From a bacterium (GTDB taxonomy: Bacteria > Patescibacteriota > JABMPQ01 > JBDRIV01): a stretch of DNA of 64,000 nucleotides. This document shows positions 5,254 to 15,625 of the stretch, in pieces. The stretch lies in contig JBDRIV010000002.1 of NCBI GenBank assembly GCA_043815505.1, forward strand, positions 502,943-566,942, written 5' to 3'. Every line of letters begins with the position of its first letter. The stretch's first letter is position 1. Position numbers and translations under genes: made by a program. Under the pieces are notes generated by a model. It saw nothing but the letters and a program-made list of their open reading frames with translations, did not search any database and was not told where the DNA came from.

Positions 5254-7015
5254 AATTAGAAATTTTTGTATAATCGCTCATATCGATCATGGGAAATCAA
5301 CACTTGCTGATCGTTTTTTAGAAATCACCGGAACTGTCTTAAAACGCGACATGAAAGAACAATTGCTAGACCAAATGGACATTGAACGCGAGAGAGGAAT
5401 TACCATCAAACTTCAACCGGTGCAAATGAAATATTATGACTGTACTTTAAACCTGATTGATACTCCCGGACATGTTGATTTTACTTACGAAGTTTCTCGT
5501 TCTTTAGCTTGTGTAGAAGGAGCAATTTTAGTAGTGGATGCAGCCCAAGGTGTGGAAGCACAAACTTTATCAAATTTGTATTTAGCCATGGAACAGGATT
5601 TGAAAATAATTCCTGTTATTAACAAAATAGATTTACCCAATGCTGAAGTGGCAAAAGTTGAACAAGAATTAATTTCTTTATTAAATATAAAACCAGAGGA
5701 AATATTAAAAGCCTCTGCTAAAAATGGAAAGGGAGTAGAAGAAATATTGCAAAGTGTTATTAAAAATATACCTCCGCCACAAAAAGAAGATAAAAAGGAA
5801 TTGCAAGCACTAATTTTTGATTCCGAGTACGATTCTTATCAGGGAGTAATTGCCTATGTTCGTGTTATGCAAGGTGAATTAAACAAAAATGATATTGTAA
5901 AATTCGCAGCTAATAATAGCAAAAGTGAATGTTTAGAATTGGGCGTCTTTAAACCTAAGAAAGTTAAAAAGGAAAGTATCAAGGCTGGTGAAATCGGATA
6001 TATTGTGACCGGTTTACGTGATTTAAGTTTATGTCAAGTCGGAGACACAATAATTAATCCTGAAGCAAACACCAAAGCTTTACCGGGATATAAACCTTTA
6101 AGCCCCATGATTTTTGCCAGTATTTATCCGCAAGAAGCGTCCGAATATACAAATTTGAAAGATGCGTTAGAAAAACTGGTATTAAATGATTCTTCGCTTT
6201 CTTATGAAACAGAAAATTCCAAAGCTCTTGGTTATGGATATCGCTGTGGTTTTTTGGGATTATTACACATGGAAATTGTGCAAGAACGCTTAGAAAGAGA
6301 ATACAATTTAGAATTAATAATAACTGCTCCCTCTGTAACTTATAAATATATAGCCACAAGTGGTGAAGAAAAGGAAATTAAAGCTGCCTCCGAATTACCA
6401 AATCCAGATAGATTCAATTCTATTTTAGAGCCTTGGGTAAGGGTAGATTTATTCTTGCCGAAAAGCTTCATGGGGCCAGTTATGGAATTGGTCCAAAATT
6501 TCCGCGGTGAATATAAAAGTACAGAATTTTTGAATGAAGAAAGGGCAGTTCTGACTTATGAAATTCCTTTAGCCAGTATTGTGACCAAGTTTTATGATCA
6601 ATTAAAAAGTGTCAGTAAAGGATATGCTTCAATGAATTACGAAATAATTGGTTTCCGAGAAGGAGATTTGGTACGTTTGGATATTTTAGTAGCTGAAGAA
6701 GAGGTTTCTCCTCTTTCCTCAATAGTTCCAAAAAATGAAGTCGCAGATATTGCTCGCAATCTTTTAAAACGACTTAAAACCATAATACCTAAACAAAATT
6801 TTGTAGTAGCGTTGCAAGGATCCATTTGGGGTAGAATTATTGCTCGTGAGGACATTTCCGCCTTAAGAAAGGATGTTACAGCTAAATTGTACGGCGGTGA
6901 TGTTACGCGCAAAAGAAAACTTTTAGAAAAACAAAAAAAGGGTAAAAAACGTATGAAACACATAGGTCGGGTAGATATACCACAGGATGCCTTTTTATCC
7001 CTATTAAAAAAATAG
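5240..7015 (+). CDS. lepA: Elongation factor 4 (LepA)
   Basis: 591 aa. G1 motif NFCIIAHIDHGKSTLADRFLEITG, DTPGHVDF, NKIDLP, and a LepA-specific C-terminal domain (...GGDVTRKRKLLEKQKKGKKRMKHIGRVDIPQDAF). Confidence 0.95.
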   Translation: MEENKIRNFCIIAHIDHGKSTLADRFLEITGTVLKRDMKEQLLDQMDIERERGITIKLQPVQMKYYDCTLNLIDTPGHVDFTYEVSRSLACVEGAILVVDAAQGVEAQTLSNLYLAMEQDLKIIPVINKIDLPNAEVAKVEQELISLLNIKPEEILKASAKNGKGVEEILQSVIKNIPPPQKEDKKELQALIFDSEYDSYQGVIAYVRVMQGELNKNDIVKFAANNSKSECLELGVFKPKKVKKESIKAGEIGYIVTGLRDLSLCQVGDTIINPEANTKALPGYKPLSPMIFASIYPQEASEYTNLKDALEKLVLNDSSLSYETENSKALGYGYRCGFLGLLHMEIVQERLEREYNLELIITAPSVTYKYIATSGEEKEIKAASELPNPDRFNSILEPWVRVDLFLPKSFMGPVMELVQNFRGEYKSTEFLNEERAVLTYEIPLASIVTKFYDQLKSVSKGYASMNYEIIGFREGDLVRLDILVAEEEVSPLSSIVPKNEVADIARNLLKRLKTIIPKQNFVVALQGSIWGRIIAREDISALRKDVTAKLYGGDVTRKRKLLEKQKKGKKRMKHIGRVDIPQDAFLSLLKK

Positions 7016-7154
7016 ACTATTATCCAAGTCTATATTCTGATACAATAAGATTACTTGAAAAGTGGTATCATTAGCCATAAAACCATGGATAATGCCACAA
7101 AAGCAACAATAATGATTGCTATAACCTTTCTAAATCCTTTAAATTTTGACATAA

Positions 7155-7745: not shown

Positions 7746-8133
7746 TTCGAAAAACCTTTGGTATCGAATTATTCGGTCACGATTTTTATTGCCTTTATTG
7801 CTTGTGGCTTTAATCTTTGTAGGTATATCTTTGGGTAAAGAAATTCTTAGAAAATATCGTATCGATAATGAAATTAAAAATTTGGAAGCAGATATTCAGG
7901 AATTGGAACACAGAAATCAAGAACTTTCCAATTTACTTGATTATCTGCAAACTGATTCTTACAAGGAAATTCAAGCGCGCGAGCAATTAGGCTTACAAAA
8001 AGAAGGAGAAACCGCTATCACAATACAATCAGATTTAGAAACCCCACCAGAAATTGCAAGCTTTGAGGTTGAAGTAAGAGAAGAGATTCCTAACCCCTTG
8101 CGTTGGTGGAACTATTTTTTTGATAATTCATGA
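7723..8133 (+). CDS. ftsB: Septum formation initiator (FtsB/DivIC family)
   Basis: 136 aa. Single N-terminal TM, leucine-zipper coiled coil (NEIKNLEADIQELEHRNQELSNLL), and the conserved DivIC/FtsB C-motif YKEIQAREQLGLQKEGE. Confidence 0.7.
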   Translation: MQKKNNLNSKNLWYRIIRSRFLLPLLLVALIFVGISLGKEILRKYRIDNEIKNLEADIQELEHRNQELSNLLDYLQTDSYKEIQAREQLGLQKEGETAITIQSDLETPPEIASFEVEVREEIPNPLRWWNYFFDNS

Positions 8134-9107
8134 GTGAAGATTACTTAAAACTTAATGAAGAAACAGAAACTGAGAATAAAAAGCCAAAAAAGAAATTAAA
8201 TTGGGCTTGGCTTTTAGTATTGGTTTTAGTTATATTTAGCGCTCAGTTTCTAATCGTAAAAACTGATGTGGCCGAAAGCTTTCCTGCTAGTGTGCAAAGA
8301 TTTGTTTTTTGGCCGGTGGCAGTTATAAACTATAATAATTTTATTTCCTACTCCTCCTTAGCTGAACATGATAAAGCAATGGAGGTTTTTGCTAATAAAT
8401 CCAGTGATGAAGAATTAGGATTAGGTGTTAATTTTTCCAGTCCAGAGGAAAGACACCACATTGCTCAAGAAAGACTAATTAGAGACACAGTAATTGCCGA
8501 AATTATTCAAAATTACAATTTAGAACCAAATACAAATGAAATAAATGAAGAGTGGGATAATTTAATACAAGAAACTGGAAAGGAAGAAGATTTATTGCAA
8601 TCAATTAATGAATATTTAGGTTGGAATAAAAAAGAATATTTGCAGTTTTCCATGCTTCCCGCTTTGCGAGAAATTAAATTGCATGAATATTATTTGAGCA
8701 CCGAGGATCTTGATGTCGAGGAAAAAAGCAAGCTCAATGCTGATATTGAAAACAAAATGGTGCAAATAAATGAAGAATTGAATTCCAAAAGTTTTGCCGA
8801 TGTAGCAAAAGAATTTTCTGAAGATCCTTATACAGCTACCGAGGGAGGAAATTTAGGTTTTGTAAAAAAAGGAGATTTAGGCGAGGACTTTGATAACATA
8901 ATATTTGATAATAGCATTGGTTTAATTGCAGAACCAATAAAAACTGATTACGGCACATATTTAGTAAAAATTGAAAATATTAAATATGAAGGAGATGAAA
9001 AAACAGTGGATATTAGTTATATTTATTTATCAGCGGCTGATAATTTTGATAATTGGCTCGATAGTAAAATTAACGAAGCCAGCATAATTAGATTCACACC
9101 TTATTAA
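8130..9107 (+). CDS. Parvulin-type peptidyl-prolyl cis-trans isomerase (PpiC/PrsA-like), membrane anchored
   Basis: 325 aa. N-terminal TM (WAWLLVLVLVIFSAQFLIV). C-terminal PpiC domain FADVAKEFSEDPYTATEGGNLGFVKKGDLGEDFDNIIFDNSIGLIAEPIKTDYGTYLVKIENI. Confidence 0.7.
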   Translation: MSEDYLKLNEETETENKKPKKKLNWAWLLVLVLVIFSAQFLIVKTDVAESFPASVQRFVFWPVAVINYNNFISYSSLAEHDKAMEVFANKSSDEELGLGVNFSSPEERHHIAQERLIRDTVIAEIIQNYNLEPNTNEINEEWDNLIQETGKEEDLLQSINEYLGWNKKEYLQFSMLPALREIKLHEYYLSTEDLDVEEKSKLNADIENKMVQINEELNSKSFADVAKEFSEDPYTATEGGNLGFVKKGDLGEDFDNIIFDNSIGLIAEPIKTDYGTYLVKIENIKYEGDEKTVDISYIYLSAADNFDNWLDSKINEASIIRFTPY

Positions 9108-9109
9108 TA

Positions 9110-9182
9110 AGCCCACTGTCGGATTTGAACCGACGACCTGACGCTTACGAAGCGCCTGCTCTACCAACTGAGCTAAGTGGGC
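9110..9182 (-). tRNA. tRNA-Thr (anticodon CGU)
   Basis: Reverse complement GCCCACTTAGCTCAGTTGGTAGAGCAGGCGCTTCGTAAGCGTCAGGTCGTCGGTTCAAATCCGACAGTGGGCT folds as a cloverleaf: acceptor GCCCACT/AGTGGGC, D-arm GCTC-AGTTGGTA-GAGC, anticodon stem GGCGC/GCGTC with loop TTCGTAA (anticodon CGT), T-arm GTCGG-TTCAAAT-CCGAC. CCA is not encoded. Confidence 0.85.
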
Positions 9183-12356: not shown

Positions 12357-12431
12357 TGGGGAGTAGCCAAGTGGTAAGGCAATAGGTTCTGGTCCTATGA
12401 TTCGGGGGTTCGAATCCCTCCTCCCCAGCCA
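12357..12431 (+). tRNA. tRNA-Gln (anticodon CUG), CCA encoded
   Basis: TGGGGAGTAGCCAAGTGGTAAGGCAATAGGTTCTGGTCCTATGATTCGGGGGTTCGAATCCCTCCTCCCCAGCCA. U1:A72 as in bacterial tRNA-Gln, D-arm as in E. coli tRNA-Gln, anticodon stem ATAGG/CCTAT with loop TTCTGGT (CTG), T-arm GGGGG-TTCGAAT-CCCTC, discriminator G, then CCA. Confidence 0.85.
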
Positions 12432-12435
12432 TACT

Positions 12436-12540
12436 TCGCTAAAGCTACGTAGTGGCAAGCCATAATCAAATAAAGCCATGCAGAGTGATAAGCTATAACC
12501 AAATAAAGCTACGTAGTGGCAGGGCCATATCAAAAATACA
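12436..12540. repeat. Two imperfect ~30-bp direct repeats (AAAGCTACGTAGTGGCArGsCCATAwyCAAA) spaced ~64 bp apart, immediately 3' of tRNA-Gln
   Basis: Copy A 12441-12472, copy B 12505-12537. Each contains the palindrome CTACGTAG. Shorter ATAAGCTAT motifs recur at 12330 and 12489. Confidence 0.6.
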
Positions 12541-12558
12541 TATTGAAGAGTAATATTT

Positions 12559-12837
12559 ATGTGTTATGTGTATATACTCTTTAGTAAGAAAGCTAATAAA
12601 TTCTATTATGGTTATACAAACAATCTAAGGAAAAGAATAGAATTGCACAACAATGGTAGGGTAAGATCTACTATGCCATATAGACCATGGAAATTAATGC
12701 AGTATTGTGCATTTATTGATGGCAAGAAAGCTAAAGAGTTTGAAAAATATTTAAAAACTGGTTCTGGGAAAGCTTTTGCATACAAAAGATTTCTAAATGT
12801 AGCTTTAGTGAAGTATGTCGGAGAGGAGAAAAGGTAA
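12559..12837 (+). CDS. Small GIY-YIG nuclease superfamily protein (UPF0213/COG2827-like)
   Basis: 92 aa. MCYVYILFSKKANKFYYGYTNNLRKRIELHN shows the GIY...YIG-type motif (YVYIL...YYGYT), with a conserved Arg and Glu downstream. Sits between tRNA-Gln and a duplicated copy of the tRNA 3' end. Confidence 0.65.
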   Translation: MCYVYILFSKKANKFYYGYTNNLRKRIELHNNGRVRSTMPYRPWKLMQYCAFIDGKKAKEFEKYLKTGSGKAFAYKRFLNVALVKYVGEEKR

Positions 12838-12864
12838 TCCGAAGCATTTATGCGAAGGATACCC

Positions 12865-12877
12865 TCCTCCCCAGATT
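12865..12877 (+). repeat. 13-bp exact direct repeat of the tRNA-Gln 3' end (CCCTCCTCCCCAG); att-like duplication
   Basis: CCCTCCTCCCCAG occurs at 12415-12427 (tRNA T-stem/acceptor 3' strand) and again at 12865-12877. Flanking bases extend the similarity to 16 of 18. A GC-rich 13-mer in AT-rich DNA is very unlikely by chance (on the order of 1e-3 in 64 kb on both strands). Confidence 0.6.
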
Positions 12878-13007
12878 TTGAATATTTTTATCTTGTTATA
12901 TATACACCTATTTAATAATTCCATCATTTTTGACAACTTTATAATAATAAGTAATAATGTAACCAAGAGAATTTGAAGGCTCCCTACATGTATTGGAAGG
13001 AGGTGAA

Positions 13008-13251
13008 GATGATGGTTACTTCACATCGTTTTGGTGCGACGGATAAAAGCGATACCATGCGGGCTATTATTGGTTGTCTGATTGTAATCCTGATTCTTGG
13101 AATTCTGTGCTTGTACTGGCATCAAAAAGGCATGTTGTTTGGCACTCCAAAAGCATCTCAAATTCAGGAGATTGTATATGAAACTTTCACGACAAGCAAT
13201 AATGCAGGTTGTTCACCCTTCCAAATACCATTCCAAAATGAACTGGCATAG
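13008..13251 (+). CDS. Hypothetical small membrane protein (~80 aa) with strong SD
   Basis: GGAGGTG 6-8 nt upstream of ATGATG. One TM (AIIGCLIVILILGILCLYW). No recognisable family. Confidence 0.35.
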
Positions 13252-13788
13252 CCATATTATCACGGAATGGATAAGGAGCTCTTATAGAATCAATTGGCTT
13301 TGGCTGATTCTACAAGGGCTCCCCAAATTTTCGATCTAAATCGATTTTTTATTTGCCAAAGCCAAAGTAATTTTCTAATTGCAATTTGTAATTTTAAAAA
13401 TTGTGTGTATAATTTTACACGCTAGTTCATTAAAAACAAGCATTTCAAAATAAACGGAGGTACAAAAAATTGAGAATGAAAGATTATAAATCACCAAAAC
13501 CAGTTGATTCAGGAAAAGCTCTCACTTATAATAATCAGTTTCTTCTTTCCTTCCCCGAAAATTACGCAGAGCCTACAAGTAAGGAAAAAGGGGAAGAAAA
13601 GGAAAAGTAGAAAACATTTATTTCTTGCTATCATTCGCGTTGTAAAATGCGTCTGATAGCCATTTTTATTTGCCAAATAATACCTTCTTTGCTAACCTGA
13701 AAATAGAAACGTTCCTTAATAAATTGGGAAATATTGTAATAAATTTGTATTAGTTGGTGATAACTTAAAATAGAAGGAGGATTAACAA

Positions 13789-14022
13789 ATGTCAAAAAAA
13801 ACCTACAAAAAACCGGAAATTATTACTGAAGCATCATTTCAAACACCTCCTCCGTGTGACATTGGTGGACGACACTTCACCAGTGCTTATGACACATTTC
13901 TCGGTCATTGGGGAAATCGGAATGAATTGACACACGGCACTGGAATAGAATTAGGTCCACGCAATTCACCATGTATTTATACTTATTTGTGTGGCAATTG
14001 GAGTTATTGGTCTCATAAATAA
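13789..14022 (+). CDS. Hypothetical small Cys/Trp/Gly-rich protein (77 aa)
   Basis: AAGGAGG 7 nt upstream of ATG. MSKKTYKKPEIITEASFQTPPPCDIGGRHF...LCGNWSYWSHK. No recognisable family. Confidence 0.35.
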   Translation: MSKKTYKKPEIITEASFQTPPPCDIGGRHFTSAYDTFLGHWGNRNELTHGTGIELGPRNSPCIYTYLCGNWSYWSHK

Positions 14023-14111
14023 GGAGTAAAAATACTATAAGGAAAGGACTTTGACGTAAAAAATTTTGAGAAAGAAGACCTTTAAAAACAGATTTATTGG
14101 GAGGACAATAT

Positions 14112-14300
14112 ATGAGCAATGGTGAACTTGTAATTGAAATTTCTGGTATAAATAGAATACTTGAAAGGAGATCGGAAGAAGAAATTGTAATTGTAGAACA
14201 GGGACTGCAAAGGCTTTTTCCCAATAAGGGAGAAAAAAGGAGACCAACCCGAACGACCAACCGCAATTATTTGCGTAAAAAATTATTTATGAGAAGATAA
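14112..14300 (+). CDS. Hypothetical small basic protein (62 aa)
   Basis: GGGAGG 7 nt upstream of ATG 14112. Arg/Lys-rich C-terminus (KRRPTRTTNRNYLRKKLFMRR). Followed by an intrinsic terminator. Confidence 0.3.
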   Translation: MSNGELVIEISGINRILERRSEEEIVIVEQGLQRLFPNKGEKRRPTRTTNRNYLRKKLFMRR

Positions 14301-14382
14301 TAATCCTGTTAAAACCCCACCCAGAGACATTAACTCCGATGGTTTATCTCATTCTTCTTTCTTCTAATTGCTCATTAAGAGC

Positions 14383-14425
14383 TTAGCTGTGCGTTTACTA
14401 AAACCTGACCCTCGCACAGCCCTTT
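14383..14425 (+). terminator. Rho-independent terminator
   Basis: GCTGTGCG-(loop)-CGCACAGC stem followed by CCTTTTTTTATTTT. Confidence 0.55.
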
Positions 14426-14692
14426 TTTTATTTTCAATTTAAGTGTATACTAACATTGTTCTAAGCACGGGTTTGGAATACAACAATAAAAATGTATTAA
14501 GCTCTTTTACTCGCAACTATTTACTTATCCCCCGTAAGTATGTAGTTGCATTTTTTATCAAAAATTGATAAATTAGGAACATATTTGAACATTTAAAGGG
14601 AGCAAAATAATGCCTGTTGGCATATCCTAGAAAGGAGGTTAAAGGATCTTAGACAAAAGAGTATGATATGTAAGTAAAAAGGAGGTAGTATA

Positions 14693-14824
14693 ATGCGAAG
14701 ACCAAAACCGGGTGATTGGGTAGATTATTATTGTGAAGATCCAGAAACACAACCACCTCCAAAAAAGGAAACAAAACCTGTAAGCTTTAATCCTAATGAT
14801 CATCCACCCCTAAAACAGGAATAA
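14693..14824 (+). CDS. Hypothetical Pro-rich micro-protein (43 aa); not in the ORF track
   Basis: AAGGAGG 7 nt upstream of ATG 14693. MRRPKPGDWVDYYCEDPETQPPPKKETKPVSFNPNDHPPLKQE, stop TAA 14822-14824. Confidence 0.3.
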   Translation: MRRPKPGDWVDYYCEDPETQPPPKKETKPVSFNPNDHPPLKQE

Positions 14825-15105
14825 CATTTTATGCTCTAAAACAATATAAATAATGACCAGGGGGTGACACTGCTGATTCAATACTCAAAACTCCCAAAAC
14901 TCAATTTCTACGTTTTACTTGTATACCTCCTGGTCAGAACTTTTGCTCTTCTTGGCTAAGAATAAGTTTATATTGGATAGCGCGATATTATACTGCAAAT
15001 CCCATAAAAACTTTACCTAGCCATTTTATTTGTTAAATTATAAATCATATGCTACTTTAATAATATATTGGAGTTCTTTAAATAAAATATATACGAGGTG
15101 ATAAA

Positions 15106-15315
15106 ATGAAACCAAATATATTAAAGCAAGGTAAGCAGAATAAATTTGTTAAAACAAATTTAGTGAAACCTGCAGGTTTTCCCGTCATGAATATAATGAT
15201 GTGCTCAGAACCTCATATATCGAGTTCTGACAAAAAACATTTTCCTAATTCCGCTGCCCCAAGTATTAAAAATTCTCTAGGATTGCCCGATATTCTTTCA
15301 CCAATTGAAAAATGA
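15106..15315 (+). CDS. Hypothetical small protein (69 aa)
   Basis: GAGGTG SD upstream. No family assignable. Confidence 0.3.
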   Translation: MKPNILKQGKQNKFVKTNLVKPAGFPVMNIMMCSEPHISSSDKKHFPNSAAPSIKNSLGLPDILSPIEK

Positions 15316-15328
15316 AATGGAGGAAGTT

Positions 15329-15514
15329 ATGAATAATAATCTTACAGAATTTTCCGACACGGAACGAATTAATTATTTGCTTAAAGCAAACAATTGTAAA
15401 GGAGATTGGGTTGCAGGTGATAAGAAGGACTCGAAAGAATGGATATCTTATTCAAAACCAGATTTGCATTTTAAAGAGAAAGCCGTTAAAAACATATTTC
15501 ATCCATCATCTTAA
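15329..15514 (+). CDS. Hypothetical small protein (~61 aa)
   Basis: GGAGG 7 nt upstream of ATG 15329 (internal Met of the 15305 ORF). MNNNLTEFSDTERINYLLKANNCKGDW... Confidence 0.3.
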   Translation: MNNNLTEFSDTERINYLLKANNCKGDWVAGDKKDSKEWISYSKPDLHFKEKAVKNIFHPSS

Positions 15515-15625
15515 TTCCAAAATTCGGTCATGTTCTAGTAACTTTGAAGTCATCTTTTTATAGATACTTCATAAGAACCTGACCTTTTTCTTTACTTAAA
15601 TTCGAGAGTTTGATTAAATAAGATT

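Follow-up and report, generated by a model that had tools for sequence, protein, structure and literature searches.

A small GIY-YIG nuclease cassette located after bacterial tRNA and tmRNA genes, a candidate mobile element

The tRNA-Gln(CUG) gene is one of two tRNA genes in the window analyzed here, that is, the whole 64-kb stretch of DNA from a bacterium of the Patescibacteriota. At its 3' end lies a small unit, hereafter the cassette, which consists of a hairpin box overlapping the CCA of the tRNA gene, an open reading frame (ORF) for a 92-aa GIY-YIG protein, and inverted boxes at the far end. The last 13 nt of the tRNA gene, up to the discriminator base, recur at the right end of the cassette, and the unit between the two 13-mers is 433 bp in length. 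The features of the locus are as follows.

12357..12431, + strand: tRNA-Gln(CUG) gene including CCA (12429-12431), found by ARAGORN and by Rfam (tRNA, 63.4 bits)
12416..12428, + strand: left 13-mer CCCTCCTCCCCAG, comprising the T-stem 3' strand, the acceptor 3' strand, and the discriminator (repeat search)
12429..12455, + strand: left box, a hairpin CCATAC-TTC-GCT-AA-AGC-TAC-GTAGTGG, with an outer stem overlapping CCA, a 3x3 internal loop, and a 3-bp inner stem (read from the sequence; family consensus and covariation)
12440..12534, + strand: three tandem ~32-nt units, each a duplicate of the box 3' half plus the second hairpin (repeat families D1 and D2, 79-84% identity)
12453..12462, + strand: second small hairpin TGGCAAGCCA (read from the sequence; most related loci have a TGGCAGGCCA-type hairpin after the box)
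~12517-12527, + strand: repeated copy of the second hairpin, TGGCAGGGCCA (read from the sequence)
12559..12837, + strand: GIY-YIG nuclease ORF, 92 aa (Pfam PF01541, E 4.7e-16)
12799..12817, + strand: internal inverted copy of the left box, GTAGCTTTAGTGAAGTATG, encoding the VALVKY tail (inverted repeat I1)
12820..12828, + strand: purine stretch GGAGAGGAG, complementary to CTCCTCCCC in the right 13-mer (fold; p~0.03 versus shuffles)
12833..12863, + strand: right box, GGTAA-TCC-GAA-GCA-TTTA-TGC-GAA-GGA-TACC, inverted relative to the left box (read from the sequence; fold)
12862..12874, + strand: right 13-mer, a duplicated or displaced tRNA-Gln 3' end (repeat search; equivalents in related loci)
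12875..12895, + strand: T-rich sequence ATTTTGAATATTTTTATCTTG, probably the native tRNA-Gln trailer (read from the sequence; analogous trailers in loci L015, L028, and L009 of the family described below)

The 13-mer CCCTCCTCCCCAG is composed of CCCTC from the T-stem, CTCCCCA from the acceptor stem, and the discriminator G. Its two exact copies in the 64-kb window, 446 nt apart from start to start, compare with 0.02 expected by chance, and none of 100 shuffles reached two. Since 10 of the 13 bases are G or C and the G+C content of the window is 32%, chance recurrence is especially unlikely. A preliminary description of this DNA had reported the duplication and had named frequent occurrence of the 13-mer elsewhere as an argument against its meaning. 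The duplication stands, and no further copy is found in the window with up to one mismatch. The coordinates given there were off by 1 nt (left) and 3 nt (right), and the flanking match is smaller than the 16 of 18 bases claimed: only G and A at positions -4 and -3 are added, giving ~15/17.

The sequences following the two 13-mers differ. The right one is joined to ATTTTG without CCA, and tRNA-Thr(CGU) at 9110-9182 on the - strand, the sole other tRNA gene in the window, has no encoded CCA. Judging from these two points, the present CCA of tRNA-Gln probably comes from the left end of the cassette, and the native gene end probably read ...CCCCAG directly followed by ATTTTG before insertion. We infer that the downstream 13-mer is an insertion footprint: the full tRNA gene stands to the left, and to the right its last 13 nt are repeated and continue into the native trailer, which lacks CCA.

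The two ends of the cassette are related by inversion. In the repeat search, the 19-nt inverted repeat I1 connects positions 12430-12448 in the left box with 12799-12817 at 95% complementarity. The I1 pair and the right box are arranged as in transposons with terminal inverted repeats and in miniature inverted-repeat transposable elements, and boxes in + and - orientation flank the ORF throughout the family. The box pattern occurs in the window only at 12435(+) and 12797(-). The right box contains the stop codon of the ORF, and its final CC forms the first two bases of the right 13-mer. Because GGAGAGGAG pairs with the right 13-mer, positions 12819-12876 fold into one long hairpin (-26.3 kcal/mol, z -2.45), in which the right 13-mer is the 3' arm and which is followed by T-rich sequence. 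This pairing is probably a local stem rebuilt to restore termination at the native T-run. Complementarity of the GGAGAGGAG/CTCCTCCCC type to the tRNA end is present in the window, L003, L006, L010, and L009, and is absent from most loci. A general "guide" pairing with the tRNA end upstream of the right box was rejected on this ground.

The preliminary description had seen only two ~30-bp direct repeats besides the nuclease gene between the 13-mers. Such repeats exist, as part of the three tandem units listed above, and the 19-nt inverted repeat, the inverted right box, and the long hairpin had been overlooked. Another 19-nt inverted repeat (12743-12761 versus 12871-12889, 89% complementary) is AT-rich and possibly due to chance; its part in the ORF encodes KYLKTG, and its partner overlaps the right 13-mer and the trailer.

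Relatives of the cassette were collected from one genome per species; 580 relatives were returned, and 80 loci with flanks of 6 kb were kept. A co-oriented tRNA gene is located 29-404 nt upstream of the ORF in 53 of the 80 loci (ARAGORN), and a co-oriented transfer-messenger RNA (tmRNA) gene is located upstream in 7 more (Rfam), giving 60 in all. Four of the remaining loci are too truncated upstream for the linkage to be judged. In L067, a second copy of the cassette follows tRNA-Ser. The tRNAs cover 16 identities: Asn, Ser, Trp, Gln, Gly, Ala, Ile, Leu, Tyr, Glu, Met, Arg, Pro, His, Val, and, from a further locus, Asp. The hosts are lineages of the Candidate Phyla Radiation (CPR), Alphaproteobacteria including cultured Bradyrhizobium, Acidobacteriota, Nitrospirota, Omnitrophota, Dependentiae, and Verrucomicrobiota.

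The cassettes of the family are ~0.35-0.45 kb in size, and the box starts 0-3 nt past the 3' end of the RNA (discriminator or CCA) in 54 of 60 parsed junctions. The box consensus is RCC-TTC-GC[variable inner hairpin]GC-TWC-GGY, followed by the TGGCAGGCCA-type hairpin. The arms of the box covary. In the 54 parsed junctions, 90.8% of the cells are paired as compared with 75.6% in shuffles, and none of 500 shuffles gave a value as high. Pair 3-20 is found as GC19/UA17/CG3/AU2, pair 11-12 as UA21/CG17/GC3/AU1, and pair 5-18 as CG33/UA9, where pairs 4-19 and 5-18 are partly constrained by the anchoring of the parse on conserved unpaired motifs. The CTTCGG of the box resembles a UNCG tetraloop; this reading was discarded, since the G changes together with its partner in the other arm (CG33/UA9, none unpaired). 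At neither the gathering nor the E-value threshold did Rfam match the boxes, the leaders, or the ORF-less inserts mentioned below.

In the window and the 6-kb flanks of the 80 loci, boxes are found almost only beside a GIY-YIG gene or after tRNA genes. A dispersed repeat like the repetitive extragenic palindromic (REP) sequences was rejected, boxes being absent away from tRNA and cassette sites in these regions. ORF-less boxes follow other tRNAs in the same genomes, namely Gly in L072, Val in L025, and Ala in L031 and L042. The cassettes, ~0.4 kb in size, are widespread across many bacterial phyla, occur exactly at the 3' ends of tRNA and tmRNA genes, and apparently constitute an undescribed family. 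No description of the tRNA-gene linkage of this GIY-YIG family was found in the full-text literature searched, the coverage of which is incomplete. One of the two readings offered in the preliminary description, a small GIY-YIG cassette that targets a tRNA gene, gains comparative support from these loci. The phenomenon is far more general than stated there, involving 16 tRNA identities and tmRNA in many phyla.

Related loci, too, can carry a second tRNA 3' end beyond the cassette. The last 32 nt of the upstream RNA were locally aligned with the region after the ORF, and z>=5 was taken as the threshold. A downstream copy was detected in 14 of the 60 loci, mostly in the window's clade, where it belongs to tRNA-Asn (L003, L004, L006, and L081), tRNA-Ser (L005 and L007), tRNA-Trp (L009), and tRNA-Gln (L011 and L014). 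Exact matches extend over 12-21 nt, and at least seven identities are represented (Asn, Ser, Trp, Gln, Glu, Ala, and Asp). Thirteen of the 14 matches reach the tRNA 3' end or stop no more than 3 nt away from it; that in L036 is the T-arm only, and the right fragment there derives from a tRNA other than the upstream tRNA-Pro. Diverged copies below z 5 are found in L013 and L015 (tRNA-Gly).

The start of the copy is regular in the window's clade: it coincides with the first base of the T-stem 3' strand or deviates from it by 1-2 nt. This position is directly past ...GCGAAGGATA of the right box, whose consensus in the clade, GGTAY-TCC-GAA-GC..GC-GAA-GGA-TACC, directly abuts the tRNA fragment. In L024 (tRNA-Glu), the copy begins within the T-loop, and in other lineages (L028, L039, L056, and L064), a longer copy of up to 29-30 nt covers the whole T-arm. 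After the copy, an apparent native trailer follows, with canonical terminators in L015, L028, and L009. No copy is detectable by the alignment test in most GC-rich lineages, Bradyrhizobium included. Six CPR loci (L001, L002, L008, L010, L012, and L027) have no intact left tRNA, with only a degenerate ...GAGCCA-like end.

These copies bear on two simple explanations of the second 13-mer in the window. It could be a chance repeat, namely the C-rich arm of a terminator hairpin, and it is indeed the 3' arm of a hairpin ahead of T-rich sequence. However, with 0.02 copies expected and like copies of different tRNAs in at least 14 other loci, the probability of this explanation is negligible.

The other explanation starts from the fact that direct repeats of a tRNA 3' end are the hallmark of integration by tyrosine integrases. 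The two copies, 433 bp apart, would then be the attachment sites attL and attR of an island or prophage in tRNA-Gln, deleted down to these sites and one cargo gene. A decayed island of this kind was the other reading in the preliminary description. It is left unsupported, because the unit is constant in size and content, with its hairpin ends and only this gene, across dozens of unrelated genomes and after different tRNAs, and never carries integrase remnants. Moreover, independent deletions would not have left the box with its start exactly at CCA in every lineage, as is observed. At ~5.2-20.2 kb of the window, the ORFs of 110 aa or more that were put to Pfam yielded no integrase or recombinase domain, several ORFs there being unscanned or without a match; this agrees with the earlier remark that no integrase is present. 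In the 433-bp interval, the GIY-YIG gene is the sole ORF, and Pfam gave no DDE, HUH, Cas1, or recombinase gene. An island remnant is highly improbable.

The protein encoded by the cassette was correctly recognized as GIY-YIG in the preliminary description. It matches PF01541 with 59.3 bits (cutoff 22.6) and reads YVYIL...YYGYT, whereas no NCBIfam family is above its cutoff. Tyr16, Gly18, Arg26, His30, and Glu62, residues of the catalytic type, are invariant in alignment A1 (Tyr16 and Gly18 across 43 sequences). A profile search of the PDB gave 1zg2 at E 3e-11 and also matched SLX1. The AlphaFold2 model has a predicted local distance difference test score of 90.6, with 46-60 in the tail of residues 81-92. 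In a Foldseek search with this model, 1zg2 (UPF0213 protein BH0048), 7cq2, 7cq3, 6sei, and 4xlg were matched at probability 1.00, including the Slx1 nuclease domain, and I-TevI was matched only at E~1. The protein is a predicted nuclease of the standalone Slx1/YhbQ (UPF0213) branch of GIY-YIG. According to the model, it is a bare catalytic domain of this structure-specific branch without a DNA-binding module, since the matches are to UPF0213 and Slx1, I-TevI is matched weakly, and the tail is of low confidence.

The last ~12 residues (81-92) are a read-through into the repeat region. Many homologues end in VALAKD/EALKKD-like tails, which are the translated inverted box, and in others the inverted box sits just after the stop codon. 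Close homologues number 114, mostly from metagenomes of Patescibacteria/CPR, and a profile search gave 5,678 clusters at 50% identity (E<=1e-10). Within the standalone Slx1-like proteins, the cassette subfamily is distinguished by the FEKYLKTGSG motif and the fixed genomic position. A defense system was considered and rejected, with no PADLOC match. Prokaryotic standalone Slx1-like GIY-YIG proteins were described in a 2006 survey as minimal domains of unknown role (PMC1564403). The cassette protein shares the minimal fold and motifs of UPF0213/YhbQ (PDB 1zg2 and 1ywl). In contrast, the survey reported methyltransferase associations and fusions, and no tRNA-gene linkage, hairpin ends, or duplications (PMC1564403).

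The cassette could alternatively be a classical free-standing homing endonuclease gene of the Seg type, having one specific tRNA-gene target and spreading by double-strand-break repair between alleles, with the repeats being incidental. Seg and I-TevI enzymes, 200-250 aa in length, carry DNA-binding domains and recognize long targets in a sequence-specific manner. The cassette is a small intergenic unit, its protein belongs to a homing-endonuclease superfamily, and the protein tree, ordered by host phylum, suggests little transfer between phyla. T4 SegB is a GIY-YIG enzyme that is located in, and cuts in, the T4 tRNA gene cluster (PMC2330249). The cassette protein, however, is a bare domain of ~80 aa without a DNA-binding extension, ending in the low-confidence read-through tail, and its best structural relatives are Slx1 and UPF0213, not I-TevI. 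Its targets are 16 tRNA identities and tmRNA, and terminal inverted hairpins, target duplications, and ORF-less derivatives are not predicted by homing. We consider such a homing gene quite unlikely. The suggestion in the preliminary description that the enzyme homes on the tRNA-Gln gene itself is right in looking to a tRNA gene and too narrow, because the target of the family is the 3' end of tRNA-like genes generally.

Several loci show variation of the kind expected from a mobile or recently mobile unit. The protein tree follows the host phylum and not the tRNA identity. In one Acidobacteria clade, the genes upstream are those for tRNA-Ile, Arg (two isoacceptors), Ala, and tmRNA; in the CPR clade, they are those for Asn, Ser, Gln, Gly, and Trp, with L024 (Glu) branching separately. 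In L009, two tandem units are identical at 459/459 nt and have a 13-nt fragment of tRNA-Trp between them. An ORF-less box(+)...box(-) element of ~95 nt lies between 16-nt copies of the tRNA-Gln end in L152. In L145, tRNA-Gln is followed by three insertions in series, of which the middle one is a GIY-YIG cassette; a new copy of the tRNA end closes each of them.

The gene order FtsE-FtsX-tRNA-Gln is kept in four loci that represent four states. There is no cassette in L136; L124 has a different, classical GIY-YIG gene and a 16-nt duplication; L162 has a decayed GIY-YIG remnant upstream and a duplicated 5' part of the tRNA; and in L115 the contig breaks at the tRNA end. These loci are distant from the window. 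The preliminary description had named the constant presence of GIY-YIG after tRNA-Gln in related genomes as speaking against insertion; such constancy is not seen in L136 and L124.

Polymorphism within a population was found at tRNA-Asp(GTC), where contigs with the identical protein P0060 (L228 versus L235 and also L230) differ by an insert of ~190 nt with copies of the tRNA-Asp 3' end at its borders. In L228, the cassette, TCGGGCCCGCCA, and the trailer stand in this order; L235 has the extra ORF-less insert, ending in CCGGTCGGGCCCGCCA, before the same trailer. The 16-nt copy in L235 matches the true tRNA T-stem and not the local sequence (AGGG-TCGG...), and therefore was not made by local target duplication. 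Either this copy was carried in, or the shorter allele was made by recombination between repeats. Identical proteins P0007, P0027, P0049, and P0060 were each found in a single context, and no second context was found.

Other insertions at tRNA genes were also observed. In CPR-like contigs, some small elements are located within the 5' part of tRNA-Gln genes and duplicate this part and not the 3' end.

L150, ~7800-8380: classical COG2827-type GIY-YIG ORF, with a 52-nt 5' segment present four times
L152, ~6400-7010: classical COG2827-type GIY-YIG ORF, with the leader and 12-18 nt duplicated
L162, ~6680-7060: decayed GIY-YIG remnant, with the leader and 12-18 nt duplicated
L115, ~8270-8478: ORF-less hairpin insert

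Two more types of ORF-less insert, neither with an Rfam match, are located behind tRNA genes and terminate in a new copy of the tRNA 3' end. The first is ~110 nt with a closing stem GAGGAGGGAT...ATCCCTCCTC and forms the first ~110 nt after tRNA-Gln in L103 and L145. The second is 150-230 nt; in L147, L167, and L235 it ends in ...CGCTATCC plus the tRNA 3' end, and in L150 and L152 it ends otherwise. A distant second GIY-YIG ORF (34% identity) in L002, at 829-1320, is located beside a group I intron-like RNA (Rfam Intron_gpI at 49.4 bits, the gathering score being 50) and is probably an intron-encoded homing endonuclease.

Whether the palindromes act in DNA or RNA is reflected in their pairing. 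The leaders fold equally well in sense and antisense, with means of -55.8 versus -54.0 kcal/mol and 199 versus 185 GU pairs, and the covarying box shows only 1 GU pair in 336 cells. A structure of RNA only was rejected, as no sense/antisense asymmetry is found. On the strand opposite to the tRNA, the internal loop of the box reads GAA/GNA, and the right-end boxes show GAA/GNA on the coding strand. Each DNA strand therefore has a purine-loop hairpin near its 3' end, in the fashion of terminal inverted repeats. These features favor action at the DNA level, with the palindromes as putative hairpin or cruciform substrates for a structure-specific nuclease; a role in RNA would also be compatible.

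Taken together, the cassette is fairly probably a mobile or recently mobile selfish GIY-YIG element of tRNA and tmRNA 3' ends that relies on its nuclease and host repair, and not a decayed integrase island. A bolder form of this proposal can be put forward tentatively: a new class of autonomous ~0.4-kb element, in which nuclease-only transposition is completed by host repair, the tRNA end is recognized by structure or by a carried copy, insertion is precise at tRNA/tmRNA 3' ends, the tRNA promoter is used, and ORF-less offspring arise.

The steps could be as follows. The cassette would be expressed by read-through from the tRNA promoter, as no sigma-70-like promoter is found between the tRNA-Gln gene and the ORF. 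The Slx1-like nuclease would cut the terminal palindromes where these form hairpins or cruciforms in DNA, and perhaps also the T-arm/acceptor palindrome of tRNA-like genes in such a form. By repair or annealing across the short tRNA-end homology that the cassette carries, the host may then copy it in, leaving a complete tRNA gene on one side and a displaced or carried 3' end on the other. The resulting direct repeats would permit precise loss or tandem amplification. A target-site duplication made by staggered cuts is an alternative sub-mechanism, which stays in play because the copies in the window's clade start so regularly at tRNA position 61. The carried-homology route, resembling att sites, is favored over a fixed staggered-cut duplication, because the fragments vary over 12-30 nt, right fragments of tRNA-Asn are present without a left tRNA, the fragment in L036 stems from a different tRNA, and the copy in L235 matches the true tRNA.

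A number of points weigh against mobility. No true empty site is available in a close relative, the nearest homologue of the neighboring FeS-assembly protein being 57% identical, and the P0060 polymorphism is an ORF-less insert of another type, not a GIY-YIG cassette. In 46 of the 60 loci, no downstream tRNA fragment is detectable, and where present its length of 12-30 nt (12-16 in the window's clade and 17-30 elsewhere) does not represent a fixed target-site duplication. Five of the loci lacking an intact left tRNA (L001, L002, L010, L012, and L027) keep a well-preserved right fragment of the tRNA-Asn type; either the cassette moved with the fragment, or the upstream gene decayed. GIY-YIG enzymes hydrolyze DNA and do not perform strand transfer, and to our knowledge no nuclease-only transposition mechanism has been described. 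The Bradyrhizobium lineage at tRNA-Ala(GGC) looks vertically inherited, with no tRNA fragment, and no family member was found in plasmid and phage collections by tblastn. An RNA-level role would account just as well for the zero spacing to the tRNA and for the missing promoter.

The last points agree with a resident, non-mobile housekeeping gene of tRNA operons, acting on DNA or RNA, in which the boxes would be hairpins for RNA processing or stability and the tRNA copy would be a local minihelix or terminator. The strict co-orientation with a spacing of 0-3 nt, the promoter-free interval before the ORF, the vertical-looking conservation in Bradyrhizobium, the absence from plasmids and phages, and the terminator-like hairpin at 12819-12876 with its T-run all suit such a gene, and a published GIY-YIG/TrmH fusion hints at RNA metabolism (PMC1564403). 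However, closely related proteins follow many different tRNAs and tmRNA, and ORF-less box pairs, identical tandem units, serial insertions, decayed copies, and loci of the same gene order without the cassette speak against a resident gene. The boxes are placed as terminal inverted repeats, and their palindromes have no sense-strand bias in GU pairs or folding energy. In addition, a hairpin that sequesters the CA of CCA is not obviously helpful to tRNA maturation. We therefore regard a resident gene as rather unlikely, and the mobile or recently mobile cassette is retained as the preferred reading.

Comparison with known systems places the cassette between several of them. It resembles the Seg homing genes in being a small selfish GIY-YIG gene between host genes, linked to tRNA and presumably spread by a nuclease break and host repair; it differs in having a bare Slx1/UPF0213 domain, covarying hairpins, the tRNA-end duplication, ORF-less derivatives, and a target range of most tRNA species and tmRNA. 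The tyrosine-integrase elements of tRNA and tmRNA genes are comparable in being inserted at the 3' end, in restoring the gene, and in having the far junction marked by a direct repeat of the tRNA 3' end. For example, attB of Ms6 is located in the T-loop of tRNA-Ala (PMC1762012). In contrast to those elements, the cassette has no integrase, is only 433 bp, has a repeat that begins at the T-stem 3' strand (in the window's clade), and has inverted hairpins instead of att arms.

Casposons have terminal inverted repeats flanked by an unusually long direct repeat at a tRNA 3' end, as does the cassette. In the A. boonei casposon, the 15-bp direct repeat overlaps the 3' end of tRNA-Pro, and the target contains a palindromic segment of the T-psi-C loop (PMC5137440). 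A casposon, however, is 8-20 kb, encodes a Cas1 integrase and PolB, and makes a duplication of fixed length, whereas the cassette has GIY-YIG only and a repeat of 12-30 nt. REP sequences with RAYT and IS200/IS605 elements are similar in having one small nuclease gene between inverted hairpin repeats, hairpin-only non-autonomous copies, a DNA-level appearance, and insertion beside a defined target that is left undisrupted. They differ in that RAYT and TnpA are HUH/Y1 enzymes with covalent intermediates whereas GIY-YIG is hydrolytic, and in that REPs are dispersed in hundreds whereas the cassette boxes are at tRNA/tmRNA 3' ends. The cassette fails a defining feature of each of the closest systems: it has no DNA-binding domain, no recombinase, no Cas1, DDE, or HUH enzyme, and no dispersed repeats.

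The surroundings of the cassette in the window are as follows. The upstream genes are housekeeping genes for LepA, PpiC, RF2, FtsE, FtsX, and an FeS-assembly protein. The ~2.7 kb after the cassette (12875-15625) contains only short ORFs (up to 129 aa) and is unusually gene-poor for a small genome; the few of these ORFs put to Pfam gave no match, and the stretch has no Rfam match. Beyond it lie genes for SNase, EamA, a PD-(D/E)XK nuclease, and an HD-domain protein. A metagenome scan with a tRNA-Gln 25-mer returned mostly unrelated organisms sharing that tRNA end and no close relatives, and these contigs served as controls. Among unrelated metagenome contigs, two other trailer motifs directly follow the CCA of tRNA-Gln, one CCACTACGGGCATGCGTAAATAGACCCGCTTGCC-like (L094, L104, L138, L139, L144, L158, and L169) and one CCAACACGTGCACGCGACCGTGCTGCCTATA-like (L107, L148, L157, L159, and L166).

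The fixed position at tRNA/tmRNA 3' ends and the covarying hairpin that overlaps CCA give the very common standalone Slx1/YhbQ-like proteins a concrete biology. If not mobile, the cassettes would represent a conserved, unannotated tRNA-trailer structure that affects the expression of tRNA operons in many phyla. If mobile, they would rank as the smallest known autonomous DNA elements with tRNA genes as targets, would manage this without a recombinase, and could yield a compact structure- or homology-guided nuclease. Mobility would also explain part of the clutter of tRNA fragments and the assembly breaks in CPR genomes.

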